Source: Chloroflexota bacterium
GTDB lineage: Bacteria > Chloroflexota > Dehalococcoidia > GIF9 > UBA5629
Length of the DNA stretch: 64,000 nucleotides
Assembly: GCA_016865855.1 (NCBI GenBank)
Contig: VGNX01000003.1
Coordinates: 4,147 to 68,146 of the forward strand
Direction of reading: 5' to 3'
Numbering within the stretch: the stretch's first letter is position 1; every line of letters begins with the position of its first letter. Shown piece by piece: positions 1,963-61,628 of the stretch. The translations under genes and the position numbers were made by a program. The notes under the pieces were generated by a model. The model made no database searches, was not told where the DNA came from, and saw nothing but the letters and a program-made list of their open reading frames with translations.

Positions 1963-2183
1963 TTTTATTATTTATTGGTGGGGCATGGCCCCGTGGCGAT
2001 CTCAGCCGAGGCAGACGTGGTTGCTGTGTGGAGATTGCCACGCTTCGCTCGCAATGACAGAAAAAAGAACCCGCAATGATAAAAGGGAAGAGGCTCGCGA
2101 TGACAGGTGGCTAGCTGGGCGAGGCTAAAGCCTCGCCGCTACATGTTTTATTTTTAGTGAGGTCAAAGCCCCCACTGGTCAAT

Positions 2184-2519
2184 TCAAATCAGCACTATAA
2201 CAAGGCTGATGGCAGCAAAGCAAAAAACCGCTATAGAGATACCTAGAAATAGCCTGTTCCTTGCCATTGAGAAGAGCACGATAGCTACGATGACCTGTAT
2301 GATAGGCGTCAGCAGGAGAATCAAGATTCCAACACTAATGACAATCGCCGCTGGTATCTGGTCTAGCCGGACTAGCGGCTGAATGTTTTTAGCCCCGGAG
2401 ATGCTGAGCAAGATGATAAGCCCGATAATAACCAGCGCTAAAGAGACCGCAATGCCCAGCCTGAAACCAAGGCTAACCCAGTTGTTTAAGCGACTTTCAT
2501 CAAATTTCGTGTTTTCCAT
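2184..2519 (-). CDS. Small membrane protein, DUF1634-like (usual partner of TauE/SafE exporters)
   Basis: 111 aa with 3-4 hydrophobic helices, immediately downstream of the TauE-like gene on the same strand. Confidence 0.6.
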   Translation of the reverse strand: MENTKFDESRLNNWVSLGFRLGIAVSLALVIIGLIILLSISGAKNIQPLVRLDQIPAAIVISVGILILLLTPIIQVIVAIVLFSMARNRLFLGISIAVFCFAAISLVIVLI

Positions 2520-2540
2520 AATTTATTTGTCCTGCAAGTT

Positions 2541-3482
2541 CTATATTACGTTAGCCGTTTTAAGGAACATCAGCAGAGCTGCAAGGAACAGGAAGACGCC
2601 GAATATGCGTCTAAGCAATACCCCCCTGGCTCTTTGTGTTAATTCAACACCCAGTCTAGCTCCTACAACTACACCGATGATCAGTGGGGCAACTATAAAG
2701 GGGTATATGTTGCCGTAATAGTGGTAAATGAGCGCACCAACTGTTGTTGTGATTGCTATCATAAATGCGCTCGTAGCGATGGCTGCTTTCATCGGTAATC
2801 CCATCACCAGGTTCATTACAGGCACTTTGATGATGCCGCCGCCTATGCCGAGCAGGCTTGAGAGGACGCCGGCGAAGAAGCTGGCTCCTAACCCCGCAGG
2901 CGTATGGGTCACTTTGTAGGTAACAACCTTGTCCAGATTCTGGTCATAATATGAGTTTGCTAGCGAGCTGGATAAATTATTGGGAGTATTATCCGGAGCA
3001 ACTGAATTGTCTGCGGACAGAACGTCTTCAGACATGAGGTACCGGCGTACCACCATAGTATAGGCAACGTAAAGGAGGACAAGTCCGAAAAGGGCACTTA
3101 ATATGGAGGGGGCGATGACAGCTGCAGCCAAACCGCCTATGATAGCCCCGGGGATGGTCGCTGTTTCCAGAAGCAGGCCTAATTTTACATTGGTCAATCG
3201 GGCCTTGGTGTAGATGCCGGCAGCGGTGCATGAGTTAGCTACGATAGCTACCAGGCTGCTGCCGATGGCAACGTGTATCGGCAAGTGGAGAGCTAAGGTG
3301 AGTATTGGCACGATGAGGACACCACCGCCGACTCCCAGCGCTGAGCCAAGAAGTCCGGCGACTAATCCGGTGCCACCTAATGCCCAGAGGTTTAGTCCGA
3401 GGTTTAATTCATTCAATGGTGCCGTTCGACATAGTAGCATCGGGTGCTGTGAGAGGTCAATAAAGGGTTGTGCAGTGTCCAA
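2541..3482 (-). CDS. Sulfite exporter TauE/SafE family membrane protein
   Basis: 313-aa polytopic protein with duplicated Gly-rich helices (GLLGSALGVGGGVLIVPIL and LSSLLGIGGGIIKVPVM) characteristic of the TauE/SafE family. Confidence 0.8.
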   Translation of the reverse strand: MDTAQPFIDLSQHPMLLCRTAPLNELNLGLNLWALGGTGLVAGLLGSALGVGGGVLIVPILTLALHLPIHVAIGSSLVAIVANSCTAAGIYTKARLTNVKLGLLLETATIPGAIIGGLAAAVIAPSILSALFGLVLLYVAYTMVVRRYLMSEDVLSADNSVAPDNTPNNLSSSLANSYYDQNLDKVVTYKVTHTPAGLGASFFAGVLSSLLGIGGGIIKVPVMNLVMGLPMKAAIATSAFMIAITTTVGALIYHYYGNIYPFIVAPLIIGVVVGARLGVELTQRARGVLLRRIFGVFLFLAALLMFLKTANVI

Positions 3483-3655
3483 AATCTTAGCAATACGGTA
3501 TTATCCGGAAATAACCGGGTTAACTTGCTACGCAGGGTATTTGAGCTTACAATATAGAGACTGTAGAGAACCTGGAGAAACAGACCAGGAGAATCTCTGC
3601 CCGATTTAGCTGATTTTGAGCAAACCATATTCAACTTCTGATAACGAAGATTAAA

Positions 3656-3865
3656 ATGAAAGGATTCATCGAAATTTCTCGGGAGCTCTGCAAGGGATGC
3701 GAGCTATGTGTCTCCTTCTGTCCTAAGGGCGTGCTCTCGCTCTCAGACAAATTGAATGCCAGTGGCTATCTCCCGGCTGCTCTCAATGATAATGGCGAAT
3801 GTACAGGATGCGCTGTCTGTGCGTTGGTCTGCCCGGAAGTAGCAATAGAGGTGTATCGTGGCTAA
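3656..3865 (+). CDS. korD: 2-oxoacid:ferredoxin oxidoreductase delta subunit (2x[4Fe-4S] ferredoxin)
   Basis: 69 aa with two CxxCxxCxxxCP motifs (CKGCELCVSFCP, CTGCAVCALVCP). First gene of a delta-alpha-beta-gamma operon, overlapping the next gene by 8 nt. Confidence 0.8.
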   Translation: MKGFIEISRELCKGCELCVSFCPKGVLSLSDKLNASGYLPAALNDNGECTGCAVCALVCPEVAIEVYRG

Positions 3866-6205: not shown

Positions 6206-6300
6206 TAATTAGGTTACTGCTTTCGGTTGCTGGCTGTATTAACCGAGAACTTGTGGAAATCAAAATCATTGGCATGCAATATTTAATTGGGGAGTAACTT

Positions 6301-6732
6301 ATGTTTGTAAAACAGATTTCAATCAGTCTGGAAAATGTGCCGGGTAAGTTTTTGGCCGTGAGCGAATGCTTGGGGAAAGAGGGGGTTAATATCAGGGCTA
6401 TCTCAGTAGCTGACACAGCAGATATCAGTACCGTGAGATTTGTCACGGACAACCCAGGAAAAACCGCCAACGTACTGAGAAGCCATGACTATCCTGTGAA
6501 GGAAACCGATGTACTAGCAGTGGAAGTCCCTGATCATCCCGGTGGTCTTATAGCAGTACTTAAACCTCTACGAGACGCAAATATCAATGTCCTCTATTTC
6601 TATCCCTATCTCGGCAGGGGAGAAAGCGGACAGCCGATAGTTATTGTCGGCGTGGACAAAACTAAAGAGGCGTTAGAGGCTTTGAAAAAGAATTGGGTTC
6701 ATACCTTTGGGGAAGAGATTTATTCGCTGTGA
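6301..6732 (+). CDS. ACT-domain protein (two ACT-like halves)
   Basis: 143 aa. ISISLENVPGKFLAVSECLGKEGVNIRAISV and VLAVEVPDHPGGLIAVLKPLRDANINVLYF resemble tandem ACT domains. Confidence 0.55.
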   Translation: MFVKQISISLENVPGKFLAVSECLGKEGVNIRAISVADTADISTVRFVTDNPGKTANVLRSHDYPVKETDVLAVEVPDHPGGLIAVLKPLRDANINVLYFYPYLGRGESGQPIVIVGVDKTKEALEALKKNWVHTFGEEIYSL

Positions 6733-7066
6733 TTCTCAATGCGCGCTTGTGGGCATAGCCGACATTACATCCTTTTGCGGGGGGTGAAGCCCGGCCCTTA
6801 TAGTCCGCTAGTGCTCACCACCATCGAATGAAATGGTGAATTAAATTCTGCGCAGGTGCAATTTTACCCAGATGGTTCTGGGTTCGAGTGTATTCATTAA
6901 TACAATCAACGGACTATTCTGGGCTCTATCCAGACTGACTTATGAGAATTGTGTACATCCGGCGAAGTATTTATGTCCATAGTAAAATATCAATTTTTCC
7001 CGGCAATACTTGAGAGGTCTATGTCAAATGAATTGAGTTTATTATCATACGACGCATTTATACAAC

Positions 7067-7339
7067 CTAGGTCGTACCTTTTACCCGTCTGTATTTCGCC
7101 AAACCACACACAAAAATTGACCTGCCCCAAATAATTGTACCACTTATTAAGTTACAGTTGTCGGTATTGAGCTTGCCCTTATAACGCCCCCCCACGATGT
7201 CCATACCCTTACGGCATTCATCAACTATGGACATTGGGTCGACCCCAGCATCGACTTTCTCACATACCAGCTTCTTTACTTTCTCCTCATCCAAATCAGC
7301 CAAAGCATGAGTTAATTCCGACATATTTTCCTTCTTCAT
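7067..7339 (-). pseudogene. Fragment of a corrinoid (B12)-binding protein: N-terminal helical cap only
   Basis: The first ~50 aa (LTHALADLDEEKVKKLVCEKVDAGVDPMSIVDECRKGMDIVGGRY) look like the B12-binding_2 cap of methyltransferase corrinoid proteins. Similarity ends right after a C7 homopolymer (7187-7193) and no DxHxxG Rossmann part follows. A 330-bp non-coding stretch lies downstream. Confidence 0.45.
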
Positions 7340-7375
7340 TAGCTTTATACAGCTTCTTATCCCATACCTAACTTT

Positions 7376-8170
7376 TCACTTAGTGAACCGGGGCGGCCTC
7401 TTTTCTAAAAACGCCTGAATGCCTTCATTCACCTCATCCGAGAGCATAAGCCTTTCCACAAGCTCTGGCTCGCATGGATACAGGTCAGCCATCCTGGCTA
7501 GCGATGCCGCGTTGACAATCTTCTTGGTTATCCTTGTAGCCAGAGGGCCCTTGGTAGCAATTTTCTGCACCAGCTCTTTACACGAACTCATCAACTGTTC
7601 TGGAGGCACAACCTTGTTCACCAGCCCTATCCTCAGCGCCTCATGAGTGTCAATGTTATCGCAGGTCATAATCATCTCTTTAGCCCTCGCCGGCCCTACC
7701 AAGGCAGTGAGGCGAGGAGTAGCTCCCCAGGTGAAAAAGATGCCCAGGTTAGTCTCAGGCACGCCGAGAACAGCATTCTCAGAGGCAATTCTGAAATCAC
7801 AGTTCATAGCCAGGCAAAGCCCCGCCCCCACACAGGCACCATTGATAGCGGCTATGGTCACCTGCTCCAGGCTTTCCATAGTCTGCATAAAATCGTGCCC
7901 AAACAACTGCCACAATCTTTCATTCGCCAGCTCAGGCCTGGCATATCTTTCTGCCATTGACTTCTTGGTAAATTCGGCGCCGACAGAGAAAGCTCGTCCT
8001 GCCCCGGTGAATATCACAAAACGCGTTTTCTGGTCTCCCCTGAGTTCGGCAAACAAATCCTTCAGCTCCAGCATTATCTGCGCATTCAAGGCATTCAATA
8101 TCTCAGGGCGGTTCAAGGTAACCGTAGCCATATTACCAGATTTTTCCACCAGCAATGTTTTATATGGCAT
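7376..8170 (-). CDS. Enoyl-CoA hydratase/isomerase (crotonase) family protein
   Basis: Crotonase signatures (VTLNRPEILNAL, FTGAGRAFSVGAE, AAINGACVGAGLCLAMNCD). I prefer the ATG at 8170, preceded by GGAGGTG, over the track start at 8194. Confidence 0.85.
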   Translation of the reverse strand: MPYKTLLVEKSGNMATVTLNRPEILNALNAQIMLELKDLFAELRGDQKTRFVIFTGAGRAFSVGAEFTKKSMAERYARPELANERLWQLFGHDFMQTMESLEQVTIAAINGACVGAGLCLAMNCDFRIASENAVLGVPETNLGIFFTWGATPRLTALVGPARAKEMIMTCDNIDTHEALRIGLVNKVVPPEQLMSSCKELVQKIATKGPLATRITKKIVNAASLARMADLYPCEPELVERLMLSDEVNEGIQAFLEKRPPRFTK

Positions 8171-8250
8171 CTTCACCTCCGTTGCTACGAGCATTGAGAA
8201 TATCTATCTGCACCCAGCTTATCAACTTTCCCCAAAAGGCGGATGAAAGC

Positions 8251-22264: not shown

Positions 22265-23000
22265 TCAATTTTTAGGCTTACATCTCAATATAACAACGTC
22301 ACTGAGAGAAGGAAGTCGCCGAGCTACTCCATCCAGCGAATTTAATATGGCGAGCGATACGCCTTTGGGACACTTAGCCAGAAACATGCCCCACCACGGA
22401 AGCCCAAAAAGCAACGACACTCCGGTAGCTCGTTCTATCGCAAGATAGCCATTCACCAGCCGCCTGAGAAATGAATAATCGAATTTATGTATATGGTCAG
22501 GCGGCACTTCCCACGGCATCCTACCTTCCGGGGCTTTGAAACCGAGCTTCTTCCTGAAGAACCATACCATTTTCCCTAGCTTAAAGCCAAGGCTTTCAAA
22601 ATTGGCTATGGCTATTATCGCTTTACCTTCAGGTTTAAGCACCATGGCAATTTGACCTATAACCATCGCCGGGTAGAGAAAGTGGTCCAGAGCTCCTTTA
22701 CACACAATCTTGTCCACAGACTGAGCCTGGAACGGCAGATGCTCACCCACCCCCTGAACCACACTCATACTCGTTCCGTTTTGAGAGATATGATTCTTGG
22801 CATGCCTTATCATTACATTTGAAGGCTCAAGCCCGATAACCACCGCCCCTTTCTTGGCCAGCTCCACGCCATCAATACCCCTACCGCATCCGATATCCAA
22901 TATCGCTTCCCCACCTCTCGGATTCACGCTCTCAAGGGTAACTTCGTTCATCCTCCGGAATAGGAAATCCGCGTCCGGATAAACTACCGTAGGAAAGATA
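22265..23000 (-). CDS. Class I SAM-dependent methyltransferase (start uncertain)
   Basis: ILDIGCGRGIDG motif I and a type-11 core. The first ~55 codons of the track ORF (to 23203) translate repeat elements (SLRAKRSNL, PSPFKGEG, CHVANAPRDD) and are probably not coding. The candidate start is MNEVTL or an unseen alternative. Confidence 0.7.
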
Positions 23001-23040
23001 TCCCCATCATCCCACTCAAAGTCAAACTTAGAGTGTTTGT

Positions 23041-23194
23041 TGTCATTGCAAGGGGCACTTCTGCTGTCATCGCGAGGAGCGTTAGCAACGTGGCAATCTC
23101 TCCCCGAGTTCCCCTCTCCCTTGAAGGGAGAGGGTCGGGGTGAGGGTGAAACCATCAGATTGCTTCGCTTCGCTCGCAATGACAGAAAAAAAGT
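23041..23194. repeat. Family-3 repeat interrupted by a nested family-4 repeat
   Basis: GCAACGTGGCAATCTC [TCCCCGAGTTCCCCTCTCCCTTGAAGGGAGAGGGTCGGGGTGAGGGTGAAACCATC] AGATTGCTTCGC. The uninterrupted version is at 14329-14393. Confidence 0.85.
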
Positions 23195-23199
23195 TGTCC

Positions 23200-24003
23200 T
23201 CACTTGGCACCTAAAGCCTTAGCCTTATTGTAGGCGGCAATGACCGCCTGAAGTAGCAGAGAACGCAGACCGCCCGTCTCCAACTGCAGCAGCCCCTCGG
23301 TGGTCGTCCCTCCCGGCGATGTCACCATATTCCTTAGCTCAGCCGGATGTTTACCCATCGCCTCGACAGCTCGCGTCGAACCCAGCACCGTCTGCACCAC
23401 CAGCTTTTCAGCCATATCACGGGGCAAGCCTATATGGACACCGGCATCAACCAGCGCCTCGATAACGAGGAAAACATAAGCCGGACCGCTGCCGCTTAAG
23501 GCGGTCGCCATGTCTATATATTTCTCGCCACCGACATAGATTTCCTTGCCCAATGCAGCCAGTATGGACTGTGCCATCTCCTTCTGACGCTGATTCACCT
23601 CGGAGGTAGCTGACCATACCGTTATGCCTTCGCCTATCTGCGCCGGCATATTAGGCATCGCCCGAACCAGGCAGGAATGTCCCAGCCCTTCGCGTAAGCC
23701 CTCCAAAGTGGCCCCGGCCACTATGGACAACACCAGCTGCTGAGGCGATAGCCCCTTCTTCATTTCGCCCAGTACCTTGCCCAGTTCCTGCGGCTTCACC
23801 GCCAAAACAACCACTTCAGCCCCCTTCACCACCTCCCGGGTGTCAGCCGCAGCCCTGACGCCATATCTCTCTTTCAAGATATCCCGTCGTGCTTCGCTGA
23901 CATCGCTGACAGTGATATCAGCAGGTTTAACCGCTCCTTTAGCCAGCAAGCTCTTAATCATCGCCTCCCCCATAACTCCACCACCGATAAAACCTATCTT
24001 CAT
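23200..24003 (-). CDS. proC: Pyrroline-5-carboxylate reductase
   Basis: 267 aa with MKIGFIGGGVMGEAM and C-terminal SPGGTTTEGLLQLE. Confidence 0.9.
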   Translation of the reverse strand: MKIGFIGGGVMGEAMIKSLLAKGAVKPADITVSDVSEARRDILKERYGVRAAADTREVVKGAEVVVLAVKPQELGKVLGEMKKGLSPQQLVLSIVAGATLEGLREGLGHSCLVRAMPNMPAQIGEGITVWSATSEVNQRQKEMAQSILAALGKEIYVGGEKYIDMATALSGSGPAYVFLVIEALVDAGVHIGLPRDMAEKLVVQTVLGSTRAVEAMGKHPAELRNMVTSPGGTTTEGLLQLETGGLRSLLLQAVIAAYNKAKALGAK

Positions 24004-26200: not shown

Positions 26201-27427
26201 CTAAGAGGAAATCCCCCCTCCTCCACCTTCGTTAGTCTTTCCGCTTTTCCACCCAGTTCTTCCTTCAATCGAAATACTATTGGGAGCATTTAACATTTTT
26301 CTCTCTAACTGGCAAACCTGGGTGAAAATACAATATCCGTCATCCCTAAAAATCAACCTGTCTTGTGGAACTAGACTCTCCAACCTTTTTTCCGCTATCT
26401 CTTTTTCTGGTGGACAAATGCGTTTGCTTGGTCGACAGGCTATCTTGCCAAGTCTAAAGATCAGATAGTCCATTGATGCTGGCGTTGGTGGTCTATGATT
26501 CTTAGGAATTTCACCCCACTTTTCCCACACCTCTCTCCACGATTCACGGTTTAATCTATCTACCATTGAATACTGATAGCAAAAAACATCCAAGAAACTT
26601 GCAAGTAAGGGGATGCGAAATTGGATAATCCCTGTTCTCAACGCCACCCTCATAGTATTTTTGTCGCTCATGACATCCAATTTCTCCACATTTCTTTTGT
26701 ATTTCCATACACTTAAATCAGCCATGTCTCTTAAGAACATGTGAGACTTTTTGATAGAAAAACCATATTTCTCTTCTGCTGTTAACGACTTCACTATCTC
26801 AACGACATCTCCATCATGAACCTTGTTAATTGCATATGCCGACGAGTTATATTGTTCCACCAGTAATCTTGCAGAATTCAACATCCAAGGTTTTCGTTTG
26901 TCTCTCTGTGACTGGGCCCCAAGAAAATTAAGAAGTTCGTCTACCAATAAAGCATTATTCATTACTTTTTCAGGCCTGAAACAATTGGGGTGTCTTTTGT
27001 AAAATTCAAATGGATTGCTTCTTGCATGGACGTCGATATTGAAATCTTGGATTGCGGTAAAAAACCTTACATTAGCAATTTCCTCTTCGGTCAAATCAAG
27101 GGTATCTAATTGGACTCTGATAATATTACTTTTATAGATACCTTCCAACACTTTGGCTACTGTTAGACACTCCCCTTTCGGATTGATCTTCGGAGACAAT
27201 ACCTTTTCGTGGTTTTCTTCCCAGTATCTGTGAAATTCTGAAATATATTCAGAAGGCAAAATTGCTTTTTTCTGATAAAGAAAACTATTAATTTCATTCA
27301 GTATATTTGCTGCTAATTTGTATTCGTCTTCGCCCTCAAATTCTCCAATCTTAAACCTTATTCCGCAATGCTGTGCAAGCTTTTCAAGAAATTCGAGAAA
27401 ATTTGACATAAATGCGCTATCTCCCAT
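26201..27427 (-). CDS. HhH-GPD-like protein with EndoIII-type 4-Cys cluster (putative DNA glycosylase), AT-rich island gene 3
   Basis: Track ORF is 26201-27457. Likely start is M11 (27427) or M17 (27409). HhH-like YGFSIKKSHMFLRDMADL (aa 231-248), LDVMSDKNTMRVALRTGI (aa 260-277, compare EndoIII VDTHIFRV..R), and C341-x6-C348...C376-x5-C382. Confidence 0.5.
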   Translation of the reverse strand: MGDSAFMSNFLEFLEKLAQHCGIRFKIGEFEGEDEYKLAANILNEINSFLYQKKAILPSEYISEFHRYWEENHEKVLSPKINPKGECLTVAKVLEGIYKSNIIRVQLDTLDLTEEEIANVRFFTAIQDFNIDVHARSNPFEFYKRHPNCFRPEKVMNNALLVDELLNFLGAQSQRDKRKPWMLNSARLLVEQYNSSAYAINKVHDGDVVEIVKSLTAEEKYGFSIKKSHMFLRDMADLSVWKYKRNVEKLDVMSDKNTMRVALRTGIIQFRIPLLASFLDVFCYQYSMVDRLNRESWREVWEKWGEIPKNHRPPTPASMDYLIFRLGKIACRPSKRICPPEKEIAEKRLESLVPQDRLIFRDDGYCIFTQVCQLERKMLNAPNSISIEGRTGWKSGKTNEGGGGGISS

Positions 27428-27707
27428 CTCTAAAGAATTTTGCCTCCCCAGTGGCAAGGTTTAATTCTATTATCCCTATTGTTTCACCAACAGGCTTGTG
27501 GGCAGCCTGTGCGGTATCGTAGATATCAATTACGATAGCCTCTTTTTTCTCAAAAGTAATATGCACGGTTCTATCTAGTTCGTTATCAACGTAGAACCCC
27601 TCAAGTTCACCCATTCTAAAAACTCTTGAACCTTTCTTTTCTCCCCTTCTATATATTGCCACAGAAGGTTCCATAGGAATATACTTGTCAACCTTGTGCC
27701 ATGTCAT
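27417..27707 (-). CDS. Hypothetical 96-aa protein, AT-rich island gene 2
   Basis: ORF tightly packed between the methyltransferase and the 418-aa gene. No motif recognised. Confidence 0.5.
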   Translation of the reverse strand: MTWHKVDKYIPMEPSVAIYRRGEKKGSRVFRMGELEGFYVDNELDRTVHITFEKKEAIVIDIYDTAQAAHKPVGETIGIIELNLATGEAKFFRDGR

Positions 27708-27723
27708 AGTTTTACCCCCTTTC

Positions 27724-29283
27724 TCAATAAACCTTTTTATAAATTAACAGATATTGGTGGGTTATTCTCAGATACTCGCCATTATCAGAGTCAACGTTAT
27801 CCAACTTACTTTTTTCTTGGGCAACCACCACTATCTCCTTTAACCATAAACTACCTGAAGTAATCGCATCTATCATTCGTTTAGCAAGAGGCTCTATATA
27901 TCCATCTATTCTTACATCCTGTGTCTGGATCGCTATGAAACCACCATCAGTTATACTATGCACTTCACGAGCTATAACTTCGTTTACCTTCCGCAAATAG
28001 CCCTCAATATCTACTCGAGAGGGATTATTAGCTAGAAACGGTGATTTTATAAAGAGTAATCTTCTTCTTTTTGCACTCCTATCAATGGCGGAAGTATCGT
28101 CTTCAGAATGTGGAAGGAAAGTTATAGTGGAATATCCATCACCGTTTGAATATCTATCAATTACATTTTTGTTCAAGCGTGCTTCAAAATCCTTCACTGG
28201 CAAGACCCACACAGTTGTGGTCTCAAGTTCGTCCAATTTCCTTTTCAAGTATGGCTTCTCTAAAGTAGGAGCAACTAAACTATAATCAGCCCCGCTTTCT
28301 TCCACGCCCAAAGGAACAATTCGCTCATGTTTCTCAAAAATCGGTAAATACTCGTGGGCTAACAGAAGAAAATTGTATTTTACGCTATTGGCATACCAAA
28401 ATCCCGTAGTTTTGCAGTTATGTTGACGCTTAATAACAAGCTCTTTCAATTTAAAGCCGGCATCTAAATATACGTTTATGAGTTTAAAACCTAAAGGAAT
28501 AACATGTTTCTTCCTTCGCATGTCTCCTATCAAAATAGCGCACTGTCTACCTGGTTTCAGCACCCTAAAACTCTCTTTTGCGACCTTGGACATCTCTTTC
28601 AAGAACTCATCCATGCCCAAAAATGATAAGTCACCTTCTTTAGAATCCGTATAATGAATAATGTTTGCATAGGGAGGATGAGCACAGATTAAATCCACCG
28701 AGCTATTATCTAAAAATGACAAATCTCTCGCATCGCCAACCAATAATTCAGGTTCATGAATCTGATAATGGCTTTTTTCGCTAATAAGAATTGTTTGTCG
28801 TGAATCTACGTTAAAACTTACATTCGCCTGTGCTAACTCAATGGCCTTATCATTGATATCAAAGGCTATGCACCTTCTTCCTAAAAGTTTACACTCCACA
28901 GCGGTTGTTCCCGCACCACAGAAATAATCTAAAACTAACTCACCGGGTTTCGAATATTTGAGAATCAAATTCCTCGGAATGTAAGGGGACCAATTTCCTC
29001 TATACTCTCCACTATGAGTTGCCCATTTACCCCTTTGTTTAAAACTCCAGACGGTCGTTTCCTCTTCCTTGAAATCCTTTGGGTAAAGCGTTTTTACCTT
29101 TTTATGGCCTCTAAGAGCACTAATATTCACTCCCTGTGATTTAGTGATAAGTCGCTCAATATACCTAAACGTAACTCCGTATTTCTGACCAATCTCTAAG
29201 TCTGGAATCCCCCTTGCTTTTTCTTGTAAGATCTTCTCCTGGAGTTCTTTCTCAGTTTTTGAGGTCACTTTTTGACTAGTCAC
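27724..29283 (-). CDS. DNA methyltransferase (N4-C/N6-A, PF01555-like sequence but permuted motif order) with N-terminal HTH
   Basis: TTVWSF..HSGEY..PRNLILKYSKPGELVLDYFCGAGTT (motifs X-I, aa 76-127, nt 28903-28923 for FCGAGTT) precedes DLICAHPPYANI (motif IV, aa 197-208, nt 28669-28680 for HPPY). HTH-like GIPDLEIGQKYGVTFRYIERLI at aa 25-46. Confidence 0.8.
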   Translation of the reverse strand: MTSQKVTSKTEKELQEKILQEKARGIPDLEIGQKYGVTFRYIERLITKSQGVNISALRGHKKVKTLYPKDFKEEETTVWSFKQRGKWATHSGEYRGNWSPYIPRNLILKYSKPGELVLDYFCGAGTTAVECKLLGRRCIAFDINDKAIELAQANVSFNVDSRQTILISEKSHYQIHEPELLVGDARDLSFLDNSSVDLICAHPPYANIIHYTDSKEGDLSFLGMDEFLKEMSKVAKESFRVLKPGRQCAILIGDMRRKKHVIPLGFKLINVYLDAGFKLKELVIKRQHNCKTTGFWYANSVKYNFLLLAHEYLPIFEKHERIVPLGVEESGADYSLVAPTLEKPYLKRKLDELETTTVWVLPVKDFEARLNKNVIDRYSNGDGYSTITFLPHSEDDTSAIDRSAKRRRLLFIKSPFLANNPSRVDIEGYLRKVNEVIAREVHSITDGGFIAIQTQDVRIDGYIEPLAKRMIDAITSGSLWLKEIVVVAQEKSKLDNVDSDNGEYLRITHQYLLIYKKVY

Positions 29284-53875: not shown

Positions 53876-54002
53876 GTCAACATGTTATATAATGAGATAG
53901 CGTATTATCTAATCAGGCTTTTCTTTGGAGGAGAGAACTGCCCCAAACGCATGTAGCCACGAGGCTTTAGCCTCGTGGTCACGACCCTAAAGGGTCGTGG
54001 CT
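53876..54002. repeat. 127-bp direct repeat, copy 2 (immediately upstream of polA)
   Basis: See copy 1. Offset between the copies is 417 bp. Confidence 0.9.
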
Positions 54003-54085
54003 ACATGAGTTGGTGCATAGCCCGTGCTGGATTACGAACACATAGTCCTGTACTTCGTGTCATTCCGGAGGAACGGAGTGAAGTT

Positions 54086-56800
54086 ATGGCTAAAGAAAAA
54101 CCGTTACTCTTGCTTTTCGATGGAAATGCTCTGATACACCGGGCTTTCCACGCCTTACCCCCACTCACAATATCCAAGACCGGGGAAATGGTCAATGCCG
54201 TCCAGGGCTTTGCCAGCACATTACTCAAGGTGCTGAATGAAATCAAGCCGACTCACTGGGCTATTGCCTTCGACCCCCCCACACCAACCTTCAGACATGA
54301 GAAATTCGAGGATTACAAAGCTCAACGCCCCAAAACTCCCGAAGAGCTTATCAATCAGATAAAGCGGGTTCACCAACTGGTAGATGCCTTCAATATTCCC
54401 ACCTTCGAAATCGATGGTTTCGAAGCTGATGACGTTTTGGGTACCCTGAGCTGCCAAGCTGGCCAGCAAAACGTAGACACCCTCATCGTTACTGGCGACA
54501 ACGATATCCTCCAAGTTGTCTCACCTAACACAAAAGTAATGGCTCCAAGACGAACCTTCAGTGACACAGTAATCTACGATGAGGCAGGTGTAGAGCAGAA
54601 ATACGGCATATCTCCCGAGCAACTTGCCGAACTCAAAGCCCTGGCCGGCGACCCCTCAGACAACATCCCTGGCATCCCCGGCATCGGCGACAAGACGGCA
54701 GCCAAGCTACTGCGACAATTCGGCAGCCTCGAGGGAATATATAGGCATATTGACGAAATAACTCCTGAGAAGCTACAGGCATTGCTCCGCGACCATAAAG
54801 CCCATGTTCTTCAAAATAAGGAGCTGGCGACGATAGTCACTGATGTGCCTATAAGTTTGAACCTAGATGCTTGCCAGGTCAGCTCTTACGACAGACATCA
54901 AGTAGTCGAACTTTTCCGTGAACTGGGATTCGTCCAATTGCTATCCAGACTGCCTGAGGAGATAGAAGGGACACTAACTGTAGCTCCCAGCCAGGCCATA
55001 TCCAAGAAGGACTACCACATAATTAACACTGACCAAGCTTTAGATAAGCTTATTACCCAGTTGCTGACCGCCAAAGAATTCACCGTTGACCTGGAGACTT
55101 CCAGCAAAGAAGTCATGGCTGCTGAACTTGTCGGCATCTCATTGTCATCAACACCAGGTGAAGCCTACTACATACCGGTGGGACACCGTGGCTTAAGCCA
55201 AATATCCCAGCTACCATTGTCTCAAGTCATTGCCAAGCTTAAGCCTGTGCTTGAAGACGCCAAAATCCCCAAAACAGCCCACAACGGCAAATTTGATATG
55301 ACGGTGCTTGCCGAATACGGGATAAAGCTTGAGAATTTGACCTTCGATACCATGATTGCCGCTTATCTGCTTGGCGAAAAATCCATCGGGCTTAAAGCGC
55401 TGGCTTTCAATAAACTCGGAGTCGAGATGACACCCATCACCGACCTAATCGGCAAAGGAGCCAAGCAGCTCTCTATGGCGATGATAGCAACAGAACAGGT
55501 TGCCGATTATGCCGCTGCCGATGCCGATATTACTCTAAGACTTAAAAACATGCTCGACGCCGAGCTGCAAAAAGAAGGACTATGGCAACTTTTCAGTGAA
55601 GTGGAGATGCCTTTAGTCCCGGTGCTGGTAGCTATGGAAAGAAATGGGGTCGCTATAGATGTTGAACTGCTGCGAGATATGTCTCACAGCCTGGGGAAAG
55701 AAATGCTCAGACTGGAAGCAGAGGTTTACAACAGCCTCGGCTACAGGTTCAACATAAACTCGTCACAACAACTATCCCGAATCCTTTACGAGGAGCTGAG
55801 ACTCCCCAAGCCGCGCAAAACAAAAAGCGGCTATTCCACCGAAGCTGCAGCACTTGAAGAACTAAGAGAAACTCACCCCATAATTGGACTTGTCTTGCAA
55901 TACCGACAGCTCGCCAAGCTGAAGTCAACTTACACCGATGCTTTCCCTGCCTTAGTCAACCCTAAAACAGGCAGGCTCCATACCAGCTTCAACCAGACAG
56001 GCACAACCACCGGCCGCCTTTCCTCCAGCGAGCCGAACATGCAAAACATCCCCGTAAGAGGCGAGCTGGGGGGGCGAATAAGGCAGGCCATTATCGCCCA
56101 GCCGGGGTGGTATCTCCTATCTGCCGATTATTCACAAATTGACCTCAGGGTATTAGCTCATATCTCCCAGGACCCTGAACTTATCGCCACTTTTCTGAGA
56201 GATGAAGATGTCCATACCGCCACCGCCTCCAGTGTCTTCAACATATCCCCGGACAAGGTGACATCAGAGATGCGTCGCGTGGCCAAGACGGTCAATTTCG
56301 GCGTAATCTACGGCATGAGCGACTATGGCCTGGAGCAAGCCACCGAATTCAGTCGAGAGGAAGCCGCCCAATTCATCACCTCCTATTTTGAAAAATACCC
56401 CAAGGTCAAAGAATATATCGAAAACACCAAAAGCCAAGCCAGAGAGCGGGGCTACGTGCAAACGGTGATGGGCAGGAGGCGCTACATACCTGAAATCAAC
56501 TCGCCAAACCGGCAGGTCAGAGAAGCTGCCGAGCGAATGGCAATAAACATGCCGGTGCAGGGCACCTCTGCCGATATTATCAAAATCGCCATGGTCAACC
56601 TTCACCGCGAGATGGGAAACCGGAACTTGCGAAGCAAGATGACCCTCCAGGTTCACGATGAGCTTGTCTTCGAGGTGCCTCCAGAGGAGATAGACTTGAT
56701 GAAGGAACTGGTCTCCCAGATAATGCCTCAAGCCTTAAAGCTCAGCGTGCCGCTAAAGATAGACATCAAGCTGGGCAAAAACTGGGCCGAGATGGGATAA
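54086..56800 (+). CDS. polA: DNA polymerase I
   Basis: MAKEKPLLLLFDGNALIHRAF (5'-3' exonuclease), exonuclease motifs (TVDLETS), and polymerase motifs (DYSQIDLRVLAH, KTVNFGVIYG, QVHDELVFE). Start at ATG 54086 after GGAG. The track ORF start at 53975 lies in repeat DNA. Confidence 0.95.
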   Translation: MAKEKPLLLLFDGNALIHRAFHALPPLTISKTGEMVNAVQGFASTLLKVLNEIKPTHWAIAFDPPTPTFRHEKFEDYKAQRPKTPEELINQIKRVHQLVDAFNIPTFEIDGFEADDVLGTLSCQAGQQNVDTLIVTGDNDILQVVSPNTKVMAPRRTFSDTVIYDEAGVEQKYGISPEQLAELKALAGDPSDNIPGIPGIGDKTAAKLLRQFGSLEGIYRHIDEITPEKLQALLRDHKAHVLQNKELATIVTDVPISLNLDACQVSSYDRHQVVELFRELGFVQLLSRLPEEIEGTLTVAPSQAISKKDYHIINTDQALDKLITQLLTAKEFTVDLETSSKEVMAAELVGISLSSTPGEAYYIPVGHRGLSQISQLPLSQVIAKLKPVLEDAKIPKTAHNGKFDMTVLAEYGIKLENLTFDTMIAAYLLGEKSIGLKALAFNKLGVEMTPITDLIGKGAKQLSMAMIATEQVADYAAADADITLRLKNMLDAELQKEGLWQLFSEVEMPLVPVLVAMERNGVAIDVELLRDMSHSLGKEMLRLEAEVYNSLGYRFNINSSQQLSRILYEELRLPKPRKTKSGYSTEAAALEELRETHPIIGLVLQYRQLAKLKSTYTDAFPALVNPKTGRLHTSFNQTGTTTGRLSSSEPNMQNIPVRGELGGRIRQAIIAQPGWYLLSADYSQIDLRVLAHISQDPELIATFLRDEDVHTATASSVFNISPDKVTSEMRRVAKTVNFGVIYGMSDYGLEQATEFSREEAAQFITSYFEKYPKVKEYIENTKSQARERGYVQTVMGRRRYIPEINSPNRQVREAAERMAINMPVQGTSADIIKIAMVNLHREMGNRNLRSKMTLQVHDELVFEVPPEEIDLMKELVSQIMPQALKLSVPLKIDIKLGKNWAEMG
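56774..56799. repeat. Left copy of the island-flanking direct repeat (att-like core) inside the last polA codons
   Basis: GGCAAAAACTGGGCCGAGATGG is identical to 59868-59889. After one mismatch, ATA also matches. Confidence 0.9.
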
Positions 56801-57370: not shown

Positions 57371-57405
57371 AGCGGAGGTAAGCTATAAGTTTCTTGGGGG
57401 TTGAT

Positions 57406-59184
57406 ATGTATACTCTTGAGACAATCAAAACAGAGCAAATTGGTGCCGACTTGTCAAAGGTTGTTGACAAGATTATCAAGCAGTACGAAAGCTTCCCCAA
57501 GGCATTTCAGAAGGAAGCTATCCAGAACGCCTGGGATGAACGTTTAGACAAGAAAAAAGCAACGAATTGGGAGATAAAAATCTATACTGACAGTGCGGAT
57601 GAGCAAGCTCACCTCGTAGTAGAAGATTTTGGTACTAAGGGAATGGATGAGGAGAGGTGGGATGCTTTCTTATCATTATGGAAACCCAAGAAGGAAGAAC
57701 TAGATGCTGGTGGACAGGGTCAAGGGAAGTTTGTACTAATGGGAGCATCAAAGAAAAACATCCTTATCGTTGAGAGCATAAGCGATGAAATACTGTATAG
57801 ATGTAAATTTCTTCAAAACGACAGGAAAAGTTGTGGAGAATGCTCCATCAAAGACTTTGTTCCAAATGCTCAAGCACTAAGCCATAAAGGGACAAAAATC
57901 TGGGTCTACGATATTAAAGGGGATTTCCTGAATTCGATTAATGCTCAAGAATTCGTTGATTCAATAGCTGAAACATGGTGGCAAATCCTAGCAGACCGCT
58001 TCGCTGCTAAGATTTGTCTTTTTGGCAAAGATATAATTCCACCTAAACTCCCTTCTCCGAGAGAGGAACTAACTCTTTTAGAAAACAAACCACTAGGAGA
58101 TTTTGGAAGAATAAAAAGAATGGTCTTGCAGTTTTATGACGAACCTATAGCAGAAATTTTCCAAGGTGTAAGGGTCCAAAGGGCGAATATGATGATTGTT
58201 CGGATACCTTTTGAGGTTTACGACAAGGAATACCAGAATCGTTTTTCTGGGTACATTGAGTTTGATGATATTTTAGAACGTCTTTTGAAAGACATAGAAA
58301 GAACCGATCACTGTGGTTTCTTGTCAGAGTCACCGTGGAAGGAAATTAAAAGCCTGGTAAAAGAAGAAAGCGAAAAATTCGTTGACAAGATCATTCCCAA
58401 GAAGGCGGCACCAAAGGTTTTTCTTCCAAAAAACTTAAATACGATAATTCAAAAGGCTAATCAAATTATCATTGAGAACTGTCCTGATTTACAAGGTCCC
58501 GGAACAATTGTTCCGCCTATATCTAAAAAATCTAAACCGTTTTTAAGATTGGACTATCTGGTACTTAACAAAAGGGAAGTCAAATACGGGGACACTATTA
58601 AGCCCTCCTGCAGGGTGGTTAATGAAGCCGATGAAGACAAGAAATGCCTATTAAGGGTAGAGCTAAAAAGAGAAGGGCAAAGGTTTTTTAAAGAAGAGTA
58701 CAAACTTAAAATAGGTGCCGAAGACAAAAAGCCACTAAAACTATCCGAAATAGAATTGACGAAGGAAGATTACCCAAAAGGTAAATATACTATAAGGGCC
58801 ACGATTCAAGAAGATACGCACGACGTCGACACCAAGGCGACCAGTTTTTACTTAGAGATAAAAAGGGAGCCTGCAAAAAGAGGATTTATCAAAAATATTG
58901 AACCTTTCGAAAGCAACGAACCAATCAGAAATAAACCAATAAACAAGGGGGTCATAGAAATAAACTTTGCGCATAAAGACTTTCTTAATGTATATGAGGT
59001 ATTTAGCAAAATGAAAAAGCAGAATGAGCAAATAGGCTTCTATCTCATCAAGATTTGTTTAGACGAAGCAATCAGTGCATTATATAAGGTGAAACTAAAA
59101 GATCTTGGCAATCAAGACTTAGATGACATAATAAAAGAAATCAACCGGTTAAAGGACAGGATGTACTATGAAGTCTACATCTAA
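57406..59184 (+). CDS. GHKL (Bergerat-fold, MORC/Hsp90-like) ATPase with a C-terminal beta-sandwich-like region, island gene B
   Basis: Motif I EAIQNAWDE (ExxxNxxD, nt 57514-57537), motif II VEDFGTKGM (DxGxxGM, nt 57625-57645) and motif III GGQGQGKF (nt 57709-57732). The track start is TTG 57394. The ATG is at 57406. Confidence 0.65.
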   Translation: MYTLETIKTEQIGADLSKVVDKIIKQYESFPKAFQKEAIQNAWDERLDKKKATNWEIKIYTDSADEQAHLVVEDFGTKGMDEERWDAFLSLWKPKKEELDAGGQGQGKFVLMGASKKNILIVESISDEILYRCKFLQNDRKSCGECSIKDFVPNAQALSHKGTKIWVYDIKGDFLNSINAQEFVDSIAETWWQILADRFAAKICLFGKDIIPPKLPSPREELTLLENKPLGDFGRIKRMVLQFYDEPIAEIFQGVRVQRANMMIVRIPFEVYDKEYQNRFSGYIEFDDILERLLKDIERTDHCGFLSESPWKEIKSLVKEESEKFVDKIIPKKAAPKVFLPKNLNTIIQKANQIIIENCPDLQGPGTIVPPISKKSKPFLRLDYLVLNKREVKYGDTIKPSCRVVNEADEDKKCLLRVELKREGQRFFKEEYKLKIGAEDKKPLKLSEIELTKEDYPKGKYTIRATIQEDTHDVDTKATSFYLEIKREPAKRGFIKNIEPFESNEPIRNKPINKGVIEINFAHKDFLNVYEVFSKMKKQNEQIGFYLIKICLDEAISALYKVKLKDLGNQDLDDIIKEINRLKDRMYYEVYI

Positions 59185-59752
59185 TGACAGGGGGAATAAG
59201 AAAATAGAACTCGGCAGAAGAACCAACGAGGGCTATAAATATGAGGCCAAGATTGACCTCAGTAAAGATCTCTCCTCCCAAATTACCAGAGTAATTAAAG
59301 AAAAAGAGATAAATGAGATTATAAGCAGGAAAGTTGAGGAACTTAGGGAAGCGATAAAAGGATTCCCTGACAAAGAACAGAGTCTCGAATACTATTATCA
59401 AACAGGTAGAAACCTATTATTCTTGGACAATGAATTATTCAGAGACATCGCTCCCTACAGTGTGTTTAGAAGAATTTTTGAGGAGCTACCAGAGATATTG
59501 CCAGGCTTAGGAAAAAGAGCCGTTGCCACAAAGCATTTAGACATCATGTTTAAGCTAGCCCATATAGACAGAAATGACTTGTCTAAAGCTTCATGGGATC
59601 AATGGTACGAAATAATGAAATTTAAAGATATTTACAAAAGACAAGATTTGCTTAAGCAAGCTCTGGATTACTGCAAATCGGGAATGTCTGGCCCCCGCCT
59701 ACGCAAGGAAATTCAGGACCTTATGGGAAACTCGAGAATTATCTCTAAATAG
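59168..59752 (+). CDS. Hypothetical 194-aa helical protein, island gene C
   Basis: Overlaps gene B by 17 nt, suggesting translational coupling. No family recognised. Confidence 0.55.
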   Translation: MKSTSNDRGNKKIELGRRTNEGYKYEAKIDLSKDLSSQITRVIKEKEINEIISRKVEELREAIKGFPDKEQSLEYYYQTGRNLLFLDNELFRDIAPYSVFRRIFEELPEILPGLGKRAVATKHLDIMFKLAHIDRNDLSKASWDQWYEIMKFKDIYKRQDLLKQALDYCKSGMSGPRLRKEIQDLMGNSRIISK

Positions 59753-60818: not shown

Positions 60819-61628
60819 TTGCCGGAACTGCCTGAAGTCGAAACCATAAAGAGCGAACTTTTACCACACATAATCGGACGACGGTTCACCGGCGTCATCG
60901 TCTACGATGCTAAGCCGGTGCGCCAGCCTTCAGTCGAAGAGTTTCGCCGAAAACTGGTAGGGCAAAAGATAACCAGCCTTGAGCGCCGCGGCAAGTACCT
61001 CATCTTCCACCTGTCCAGCGGCGACGTGCTGGTTACACACCTCAAGATGTCAGGGGCTCTGCTGCTGAATCCAAAACAAACTGACCGTCACGCCAGAGTC
61101 ATCTTTCACCTCGACAACGGCAGCCAGCTTGTCTTTACCGACCGCAGACGACTGGGAGCCGTCTGGCTACTAGAAAATGAACAGGCTGTTACCGGCAAGC
61201 TCGGCCCCGAACCTTTAACTCCCAAATTCACCGCTGAGACTCTAGCCAAACGATTGCAGAGCCATCAGGCGCCGATAAAAGCCGTGCTGCTCGACCAGGC
61301 TTTCCTCGCCGGTATCGGCAACATGTACGCCGATGAAACCCTGTTCGCCGCCAGAATCCACCCGCTGCGGAAGGCAAACAGCCTGTCACCCCAAGAAATC
61401 AGAAATCTACACAAAGCCATCGTAGACATCCTGCGCTCAGCCATTGATAGCAAAGGCGCCAGCGTTGACACCTATAAACGCCCCGATGGTCAGCTGGGCA
61501 CTGCCCATTTTAACTTCTGCGTCGCCCACCGCGGCGGCAAACCTTGTCCCGTCTGTGGCACAGCCATCCAGCGCCTTGCCATCAGAAACCGCGGCAGCTG
61601 CTTCTGCCCCAACTGCCAGAACCCCTAG
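60819..61628 (+). CDS. mutM: Formamidopyrimidine-DNA glycosylase (Fpg/MutM)
   Basis: N-terminus (M)PELPEVE, H2TH region and C-terminal zinc finger CPVCG...CPNCQ. TTG start. Confidence 0.92.
   Translation: MPELPEVETIKSELLPHIIGRRFTGVIVYDAKPVRQPSVEEFRRKLVGQKITSLERRGKYLIFHLSSGDVLVTHLKMSGALLLNPKQTDRHARVIFHLDNGSQLVFTDRRRLGAVWLLENEQAVTGKLGPEPLTPKFTAETLAKRLQSHQAPIKAVLLDQAFLAGIGNMYADETLFAARIHPLRKANSLSPQEIRNLHKAIVDILRSAIDSKGASVDTYKRPDGQLGTAHFNFCVAHRGGKPCPVCGTAIQRLAIRNRGSCFCPNCQNP

Follow-up and report, generated by a model that had tools for sequence, protein, structure and literature searches.

A DNA methyltransferase paired with a predicted helix-hairpin-helix glycosylase-like protein on mobile islands: a candidate base-excising restriction-modification system

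Why should a mobile island carry a DNA methyltransferase gene beside a gene for a protein that looks like a DNA repair glycosylase? The question is raised by a 64,000-nucleotide stretch of the genome of a Chloroflexota bacterium (UBA5629; contig VGNX01000003.1), referred to here as the window, in which a 3.1-kb AT-rich island at 26201-29283 contains three minus-strand open reading frames (ORFs). To our knowledge almost all known restriction enzymes are phosphodiesterases. Base-excising restriction enzymes are known from the PabI family (PMC10273834), and reviews from 2023 and 2025 describe this HALFPIPE family as the sole restriction glycosylases (PMC10273834; PMC12707154). Our preferred answer, to which we assign a probability of about 0.55, is that the island encodes a Type II-like restriction-modification system whose restriction component is a glycosylase resembling endonuclease III (EndoIII) and MutY, probably with apurinic/apyrimidinic (AP) lyase activity through lysine K220. 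That it represents a second independent invention of base-excision restriction, with an iron-sulfur helix-hairpin-helix (HhH) glycosylase/lyase of the EndoIII/MutY type recruited into a methyltransferase-protected Type II-like system, is a proposal to which we give roughly even odds.

The three genes, whose location between leuS upstream and a housekeeping-type class-I S-adenosylmethionine (SAM) methyltransferase gene downstream agrees with an earlier reading made from the letters alone (the sequence-only reading), are as follows.

27724-29283, minus strand: predicted Type II DNA N6/N4 amino-methyltransferase, 519 amino acids (aa), GTG start
27417-27707, minus strand: 96-aa accessory gene, encoding a small beta-rich protein
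26201-27409, minus strand: 402-aa HhH/EndoIII-like cysteine-cluster protein, candidate restriction glycosylase/AP lyase

The GTG start of the methyltransferase gene lies five bases past an AGGTGA ribosome-binding site. The third gene had been read as 418 aa from a TTG at 27457 (ORF 26201-27457), a length that we have corrected. All 120 listed homologues cover at most 96% of the 418-aa ORF and the full-length ones are nearly all 400-410 aa, mostly 402, so we place the start at the ATG at 27409, which is preceded by a GGGAGA ribosome-binding site. The distances are then 42 nt from the leuS stop to the methyltransferase start, 16 nt from the methyltransferase gene to the 96-aa gene, 7 nt between the 96-aa and 402-aa genes and 52 nt to the next gene. 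The tight spacing noted earlier stands with this start, whereas the 418-aa start would create an overlap of 41 nt.

The evidence that carries our reading is the association between the methyltransferase gene and the 402-aa gene in other genomes. We examined 124 loci outside the window's own genome, and restricted the linkage count to full-length 402-aa homologues with at least 2 kb of sequence upstream and at least 1 kb downstream. An adjacent N6_N4 methyltransferase gene was present in 61 of 61 such loci. It shares the strand of the 402-aa homologue in most of them, lying upstream in 53 and downstream in six, and is convergent in the other two. The linkage extends to a 449-aa branch that is only 30-40% identical, including Ca. 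Kuenenia. Three loci have good flanks and no methyltransferase, and all three hold N-terminally truncated copies of the 402-aa gene; several other copies are frameshifted or cut short beside a methyltransferase that persists. The 96-aa gene is found in nine other loci of those examined, each time between the other two, so that what the sequence-only reading took for a linked trio is better described as a linked pair with an occasional third member.

The family is large and its distribution is patchy. With the window protein as query we found 257 clusters at 90% identity, and 97 representatives in a search at 50% identity; a distant member, P0145, retrieved 813 clusters. The hosts are uncultured, mostly anaerobic bacteria and some archaea, and include Chloroflexota, Zixibacteria, Planctomycetota, Atribacterota, Omnitrophota, Caldisericia, Cloacimonadota, Melioribacteraceae, Syntrophales, Methanomassiliicoccales and Nanoarchaeota. 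Homologues that are 60-95% identical are found across phylum boundaries, in many bacterial phyla and in archaea. No relative was detected among annotated plasmids, phages, integrons or IMG/VR viral contigs. Defence genes are found among the neighbours, including members of the AIPR, HATPase_c_3 and DpnII families; locus L106 encodes two AIPR proteins (1975-3801 and 6322-7497) and L104 a HATPase_c_3 protein (6297-8240). In Ca. Kuenenia stuttgartiensis MBR1 (L119 1-7318; LT934425 from about 898851) the module comprises genes for a 541-aa methyltransferase, a 148-aa protein and the 449-aa protein, and adjoins a D12 methyltransferase and DpnII. The module and the DpnII system are bracketed by two copies of the HU and RseC genes (a repeat of 300 nt at 98% identity with a 6624-nt offset, both genes being duplicated in the gene calls), an arrangement that looks like an insertion with a long target duplication. 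A methylome of strain MBR1 obtained by SMRT (single-molecule real-time) sequencing contains nine motifs, none of which is assigned to the 541-aa methyltransferase (PMC5854607).

The composition of the island in the window is distinct. Its G+C content is 0.388, compared with 0.488 for the remainder of the window and 0.528 for leuS, and lies 4.0 standard deviations under that of non-overlapping windows of the same size; the count of 22/60 for the line 27001-27060, cited earlier as a sign that the composition differs from that of the neighbours, is exact. All contigs that carry the exact 402-aa protein share the window's arrangement. Neither direct nor inverted repeats that flank the island reach significance, shuffled sequence has promoter- and terminator-like sites just as often, and an empty-site comparison found no record matching the exact downstream neighbour protein. 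The island is horizontally acquired. Atypical G+C content, patchy spread and decay of the restriction gene beside an intact methyltransferase are together the pattern of mobile Type II systems, and the linkage and mobility of the pair are the signature of a mobile restriction-modification unit with the 402-aa gene in the restriction role. The 61/61 linkage speaks for the first of the two readings offered from the sequence alone, in which a base-excising enzyme belongs to a system of the restriction-modification kind.

Which kind of methyltransferase is involved matters for what its partner could be doing. The first gene matches Pfam N6_N4_Mtase at 2.4e-34 and PADLOC MTase_II (PDLC03376) at 9.8e-96 over residues 61-318, in agreement with its original designation as a DNA N4/N6 methyltransferase, and its closest solved relative is 2zie, a putative modification methylase from Thermus. 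Its motifs are circularly permuted, with FCGAGT (residue 121) ahead of HPPY (residue 202). By sequence family it is a Type II DNA N6/N4 amino-methyltransferase. The partner methyltransferases as a group fall into two architectures, one permuted with HPPY, often with an extra degenerate methyltransferase-like domain at the C-terminus, and one with the canonical colinear beta-class order and DPPY (examples are window 27724-29283, L104 4027-5001 and L124 6398-7255). DPPY is the usual signature of N6-adenine methyltransferases.

These assignments bear on a rival explanation, in which the methyltransferase travels with a dedicated repair glycosylase that protects the host by removing a deaminated methylated base or aberrant alkylation at N1/N3. 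Such a partner, too, would be expected to be tightly linked to a methyltransferase, and the fold and the Lys/Asp pair of the 402-aa protein described below are those of repair glycosylases. There is a precedent in Mig.MthI, an HhH-GPD [4Fe-4S] glycosylase encoded on plasmid pFV1 beside M.MthTI; like Vsr, it is a repair-type enzyme encoded beside a DNA methyltransferase, and it was the second reading proposed from the sequence alone. Mig.MthI and Vsr accompany C5-cytosine methyltransferases, and the T:G mismatch problem that they solve arises from deamination of 5-methylcytosine. The partners of the 402-aa family differ in being of the N6/N4 type with no separate restriction gene: all those examined carry DPPY or HPPY and none is a C5-cytosine enzyme. 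A benign repair gene should also sometimes persist alone, yet 0 of 61 full-length copies lack a methyltransferase. It is because the partners are not C5 enzymes and no full-length copy was found alone that we disfavour the repair reading. The modules are otherwise devoid of a restriction gene, so that an orphan methyltransferase would have to spread with its own repair enzyme, which would be an unusual selective unit, and the neighbourhoods are defence islands. We therefore hold a repair partner to be quite unlikely.

To what class of protein, then, does the 402-aa gene product belong? An AlphaFold2 model built with 60 homologues is all-helical with no beta-sheet core (mean predicted local distance difference test score, pLDDT, 82.4; predicted template modelling score, pTM, 0.82), apart from residues 373-402, which are disordered (pLDDT 24-41). 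The lack of a beta-sheet core excludes the PD-(D/E)xK, HNH, GIY-YIG and HALFPIPE folds, and neither the model nor its structural matches point to a non-HhH fold, either of which findings would have spoken against the initial proposal. In a Foldseek search of the PDB the only matches at a probability of at least 0.98 were eleven chains of Qng1/DUF2419 (best E 1.3e-3, template modelling (TM) scores 0.43/0.49, about 320 columns, probability 1.0) and the catalytic domain of human MUTYH. The next match, 8z2m, a phage 5-PmdU glycinyltransferase, had a probability of 0.28. In a library of viral structures the top match was an annotated endonuclease III of Halogranum tailed virus 1 (TMt 0.66, root mean square deviation 4.6 A, probability 1.0), followed by the amino-acid:DNA transferase of mycobacteriophage Fortunato.

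Sequence profiles place the family less firmly. Pfam models for HhH-GPD and the FeS loop were not reached by the 402-aa protein at any threshold. Among 28 relatives compared with Pfam, distant members match DUF2400, Q_salvage and Ogg-HhH, all weakly; Q_salvage (PF10343) is matched by two of the 28, at best with 7e-3, and not by the window protein. Two distant relatives gave no match in PADLOC. The protein as modelled appears to resemble HhH-GPD enzymes in fold and motif rather than by formal sequence membership, so that the HhH-GPD label first given to it is borne out by the predicted fold and the Lys/Asp register, and not by a Pfam HhH-GPD match.

The residues and regions on which this resemblance depends are listed here.

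26717-26806, minus strand: predicted HhH element, residues 202-231, with G216 and K220/K221 (from the model and hhalign)
26663-26665, minus strand: D249 codon, predicted catalytic aspartate (invariant; aligned to EndoIII D138)
26312-26437, minus strand: four-cysteine cluster C325-X6-C332-X27-C360-X5-C366, putative [4Fe-4S] site (from conservation)
26204-26293, minus strand: conserved C-terminal tail, residues 373-402, ...NAPNSISIEGRTGW...GGGGGISS (disordered in the monomer model)

In the model helices 202-209 and 219-231 enclose a hairpin, with K220 opening the second helix, while D249 lies in the motif VMSD249KNTMR and caps helix 250-259. We aligned the family by hhalign to a template of three EndoIII sequences from the PDB, including E. 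coli EndoIII (2abk, verified over all 211 residues). The alignment had a probability of 70% (E 4e-5) with a 28-sequence family profile and 49% with a 45-sequence profile, and both runs gave a single register in which G216, K220 and D249 of the family correspond to G116, K120 and D138 of EndoIII. K120 is the Schiff-base lysine of EndoIII and D138 its catalytic aspartate. None of G216, K220 and D249 varies among 45 sequences whose identity falls as low as 28%, and D228, D274 and D314 are likewise invariant. The four cysteines C325, C332, C360 and C366 do not vary among 60 close homologues, and across 45 diverse ones their conservation is 90% or higher. A relative, P0133, has the spacing C-X5-C-X2-C-X5-C, close to that of EndoIII, and the 449-aa branch has a Zn-ribbon-like insert between the second and third cysteines. 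The tail keeps the pattern ...PxSISIxGxTGW...GGGGG(I/L)xS to about 28% identity, with P376, W387, G397 and G399 invariant, and the protein nearly always ends 2-3 residues past the glycine run. The hairpin-helix segment, the aspartate motif and the four cysteines that had been picked out by eye are real and conserved.

One might still suppose that the 402-aa protein is a restriction enzyme and not a glycosylase, its helices serving as a DNA-binding scaffold and the phosphodiester being hydrolysed at an unrecognised site or by a partner protein. The genomic signature shows merely that the gene behaves like a restriction gene, the invariant D228, D274 and D314 could in principle bind metal, and the proteins encoded between the core genes, as well as an 85-aa partner, are uncharacterised. 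Such an enzyme would have to work without any known nuclease core in its model and without a nuclease family match in Pfam or PADLOC, as the sequence-only reading had also seen no nuclease motif. Every fold match that carries weight is to an N-glycosidase or a derivative of one, the Lys and Asp by which catalysis in HhH glycosylases is defined do not vary and align in register, and about half of the loci lack a third gene. This makes hydrolysis by an unrecognised site or a partner quite improbable in our view.

The weaker structural matches suggest another function, that of a base-modifying or base-exchanging transferase or transglycosylase, which would install a complex modification together with the methyltransferase-like enzyme. 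The lower-ranked matches are indeed phage hypermodification transferases of the same fold (8z2m and the Fortunato amino-acid:DNA transferase), and the accessory genes between the core genes are variable. These matches are much weaker, with a probability of 0.28 and TM scores of 0.26-0.32. Hypermodification transferases need a 5-hydroxymethyldeoxyuridine (5-hmdU) DNA kinase and act in phage genomes; the loci here have no linked kinase or other modification genes, many hold the two core genes only, and the family is absent from viral collections. With the Lys/Asp pair and the cysteine cluster closest to those of EndoIII/MutY, a transferase seems to us very unlikely.

If the 402-aa protein is a glycosylase, how does it compare with enzymes of known function? 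Like EndoIII and MutY it has a predicted two-lobe helical fold, the Gly/Lys/Asp register of the hairpin and a C-terminal set of four cysteines with C-X6-C and C-X5-C. EndoIII is shorter by about 190 residues; the 402-aa protein has in addition an extension at the N-terminus and a conserved Gly-rich tail at the C-terminus, and a 27-residue insert (the Zn-ribbon in the 449-aa branch) separates cysteines 2 and 3. EndoIII and MutY are encoded by housekeeping genes, whereas the 402-aa family is encoded beside a DNA methyltransferase on mobile islands. Qng1/DUF2419, the queuosine-5'-monophosphate N-glycosidase, is an HhH-fold enzyme in which only the Lys of the HhH motif and the Asp are invariant with DNA glycosylases (PMC9881137). 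Both residues are conserved in the 402-aa family, likewise about 30 residues apart, and the C-terminal tail of Qng1 is functional and extends to the active site (PMC9881137), where the 402-aa family has a strictly conserved tail. Qng1 differs in having a free nucleotide as its substrate, a blocked DNA cleft and no cysteine cluster (PMC9881137); it is 9-12% identical to the 402-aa protein, whose family is methyltransferase-linked in 61/61 loci.

The closest parallel in function would be the PabI family (R.PabI, R.HpyAXII, R.CcoLI), which also pairs an amino-methyltransferase with excision of an unmethylated base, as is proposed here, and nicking of the abasic site by lyase activity. PabI genes are mobile and patchy, with frequent decay or replacement of the restriction gene (PMC10273834). 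Structurally the two are distinct, PabI being a beta-rich HALFPIPE dimer and the 402-aa protein having an all-helical HhH-like predicted fold with a cysteine cluster; PabI structures were not among the Foldseek matches, and PabI shows no sequence similarity to the 402-aa protein. PabI hosts are Helicobacter, Campylobacter and Pyrococcus, whereas those of the 402-aa family are uncultured, mostly anaerobic and spread over many phyla. The activity of PabI is known and that of the 402-aa protein is predicted only. Our search of the published literature, REBASE lying outside it, found no HhH/iron-sulfur glycosylase-fold protein described as a methyltransferase-linked restriction component.

From the gene content, predicted fold, conservation and linkage we infer the following sequence of events for the preferred restriction-modification system. 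The core genes would be those for the methyltransferase (27724-29283) and the 402-aa protein (26201-27409). The methyltransferase would modify a short recognition sequence wherever it occurs in host DNA, the product probably being N6-methyladenine. Its partner of 402 aa would be a sequence-directed DNA glycosylase of the HhH/EndoIII-MutY fold class: it would turn the unmethylated target base out of the helix and release it, D249 serving as the catalytic carboxylate. K220 may then form a Schiff base as the nucleophile and cleave the abasic site by beta-elimination. In this way abasic sites and atypical breaks would build up in incoming DNA that lacks the methylation. A [4Fe-4S] centre with a structural, DNA-contacting role, like that of EndoIII/MutY, is probably held by the four-cysteine cluster. 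For sequence recognition or control the candidates are an N-terminal extension of about 160 residues and the conserved tail at the C-terminus; the tail, which is Gly-rich, might gate the active site as the tail of Qng1 does.

A second architecture of the locus complicates this picture. In about 15 loci a methyltransferase of about 299 aa is followed by a protein of about 270 aa or an Mrr/NucS-like protein of about 326 aa, then an 85-aa protein and a shortened 402-aa homologue that lacks the first 44-47 residues or so (for example L096 767-3775, L101 1761-4084, L017, L025, L028, L029, L036, L102, L103 and L108). We considered whether the shortened copies are decayed remnants and rejected this for most of them, which are under strong purifying selection; five copies in the group are truly cut short. 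The short methyltransferase has a ratio of nonsynonymous to synonymous substitution (omega, or dN/dS) of about 0.06 and the 85-aa gene of about 0.1. The 402-aa family is shown by these loci not to be confined to one mode.

Pairing with a nuclease-like gene recalls the sensor-plus-nuclease logic of END nucleases (PMC12191111), and with it a further explanation, in which the 402-aa protein picks out phage DNA by its non-canonical bases, as a glycosylase or sensor for defence of the modification-dependent Dag/END kind, and the methyltransferase has a separate or regulatory role. HhH-fold Dag glycosylases counter phages whose DNA contains modified guanines, in a 2025 preprint that mentions neither methyltransferases nor restriction-modification (bioRxiv 10.1101/2025.10.29.685425), so that R.PabI, which the sequence-only reading gave as the sole precedent for glycosylases in restriction, is not the only relevant one. 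Inactive EndoIII domains sense hypermodified DNA in END nucleases (PMC12191111), and the top structural match of the 402-aa protein, Qng1, binds a 7-deazaguanine nucleotide (PMC9881137). Both systems share with the 402-aa family an HhH-superfamily fold recruited against foreign DNA and a defence-island context (bioRxiv 10.1101/2025.10.29.685425; PMC12191111). The shortened form is moreover paired with PD-(D/E)xK/Mrr-like genes, with no methyltransferase in L101. The differences are that Dag and END are modification-dependent, that the preprints describe no pairing with a methyltransferase, and that the END domain is catalytically inactive, whereas the 402-aa family keeps the catalytic Lys and Asp and has an adjacent methyltransferase, which implies a methylation-protected, Type II-like logic. 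A linkage of 61/61 that spans three gene orders and two methyltransferase architectures would be difficult to account for were the methyltransferase irrelevant, and integrons, plasmids and phages yielded no member of the family. We regard a Dag- or END-like role as unlikely.

Several observations weigh against a methylation-protected restriction glycosylase, and they concern both the biology and the fold. HhH glycosylases, as far as we know, recognise lesions or mispairs and not sequences of 4-6 bp. The shortened copies have omega values of 0.03-0.09 at dS of at least 1, and in L101 the shortened form stands with a nuclease-like gene and no methyltransferase within 3 kb; a constrained form without a methyltransferase is a misfit with any simple rule by which a toxic restriction gene could never do without a methyltransferase beside it. 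The 402-aa protein has no match in Pfam (even with E up to 10), NCBIfam, PADLOC or PHROGs, and the protein and two family profiles gave chance matches only when compared with the sequences of solved structures. The hhalign probabilities of 49-70% are modest and come from a three-sequence template. The cysteine spacing is C-X6-C-X27-C-X5-C and not the C-X6-C-X2-C-X5-C of EndoIII, and at least one relative, P0136, lacks the first two cysteines. No Foldseek E-value is better than 1e-3, which is weak, and the TM scores are about 0.43-0.66; we accept the HhH glycosylase fold class despite this because two independent libraries agree and nothing else scores.

What, in such a system, is the 96-aa protein for? 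Its gene has 10 homologue clusters and a dN/dS of 0.08-0.16, purifying selection that identifies it as a real gene. An AlphaFold model (pLDDT 72.5) consists mostly of strands and has no fold match (TM about 0.2), and the sequence has no match in Pfam, NCBIfam, PADLOC or PHROGs. A controller (C) protein of the helix-turn-helix (HTH) type was rejected, the model being beta-rich and without a match to an HTH family or fold. The slot between the core genes is empty, or holds one of at least five unrelated occupants, and about half of the loci have no third gene. The occupants include a protein of about 190 aa in 28 loci, five of which also encode a 176-aa protein, a Zn-ribbon protein in 12 loci, and the 85-aa protein with or without that of about 270 aa in 16 loci; no domain common to these and the 96-aa protein was detected. 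The 96-aa gene is an optional, lineage-specific accessory that is dispensable for the core function. Our guess is that its product is a regulator or inhibitor of the restriction component, which may delay restriction.

The protein of about 190 aa, the commonest occupant of the slot (for example L002 5448-6005, L003, L008, L013, L019 and L042), has no family match, and in L017, L108 and L110 it is encoded downstream rather than in the slot. Its N-terminus (FYHTTF.EN.PLIL) brought to mind DarT-like ADP-ribosyltransferases, a likeness that nothing supports.

The methyltransferase has two further regions outside its core.

29104-29283, minus strand: N-terminal region of about 60 residues, possibly helix-turn-helix (HTH_28 weak, E 0.12)
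27724-28323, minus strand: C-terminal region of about 200 residues, a degenerate second methyltransferase-like half-domain (N6_N4_Mtase 3.6e-4, sub-threshold)

The N-terminal region is kept along with the core in most loci with an upstream methyltransferase and is missing from the short downstream methyltransferases of a 405-aa branch; it could serve autoregulation. The C-terminal half-domain is about 27% identical to the core (tblastn). It is missing from the methyltransferases of about 299 aa, which are themselves under purifying selection, and is for that reason probably dispensable for catalysis.

Elsewhere in the window a second stretch is equally AT-rich, with a 3-kb G+C minimum of 0.385 that starts near 56.7 kb. 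At 57394-59752 on the plus strand, between polA (53975-56800) and a tetratricopeptide repeat (TPR) gene, are two ORFs, of 596 and 194 aa, that match nothing in Pfam, and fpg lies beyond them at 60819-61628; this stretch may be another acquired island. At about 23040-23210 the ORF translations on both strands (...SLRAKRSNL...VANAPRDDS... on one and ...LRFARNDRKK... on the other) resemble a short repeat element and not a real protein. The element overlaps the 5' end of a methyltransferase-like gene at 22265-23203, for which two gene calls differ in length (296 and 312 aa).

Should the 402-aa protein prove to be a restriction glycosylase, a DNA-repair fold that is among the most widespread would have been turned into a sequence-directed, methylation-sensitive weapon, and base-excision restriction would be a recurrent strategy rather than a curiosity. 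The stand-alone HhH defence glycosylases would then have a self-protecting counterpart coupled to a methyltransferase. With such an enzyme one could examine how an iron-sulfur glycosylase scaffold gains sequence specificity, and it might supply a sequence-specific glycosylase/lyase of a new type for DNA engineering and epigenetic tools. It would also give a role to a large and entirely unannotated family of proteins.

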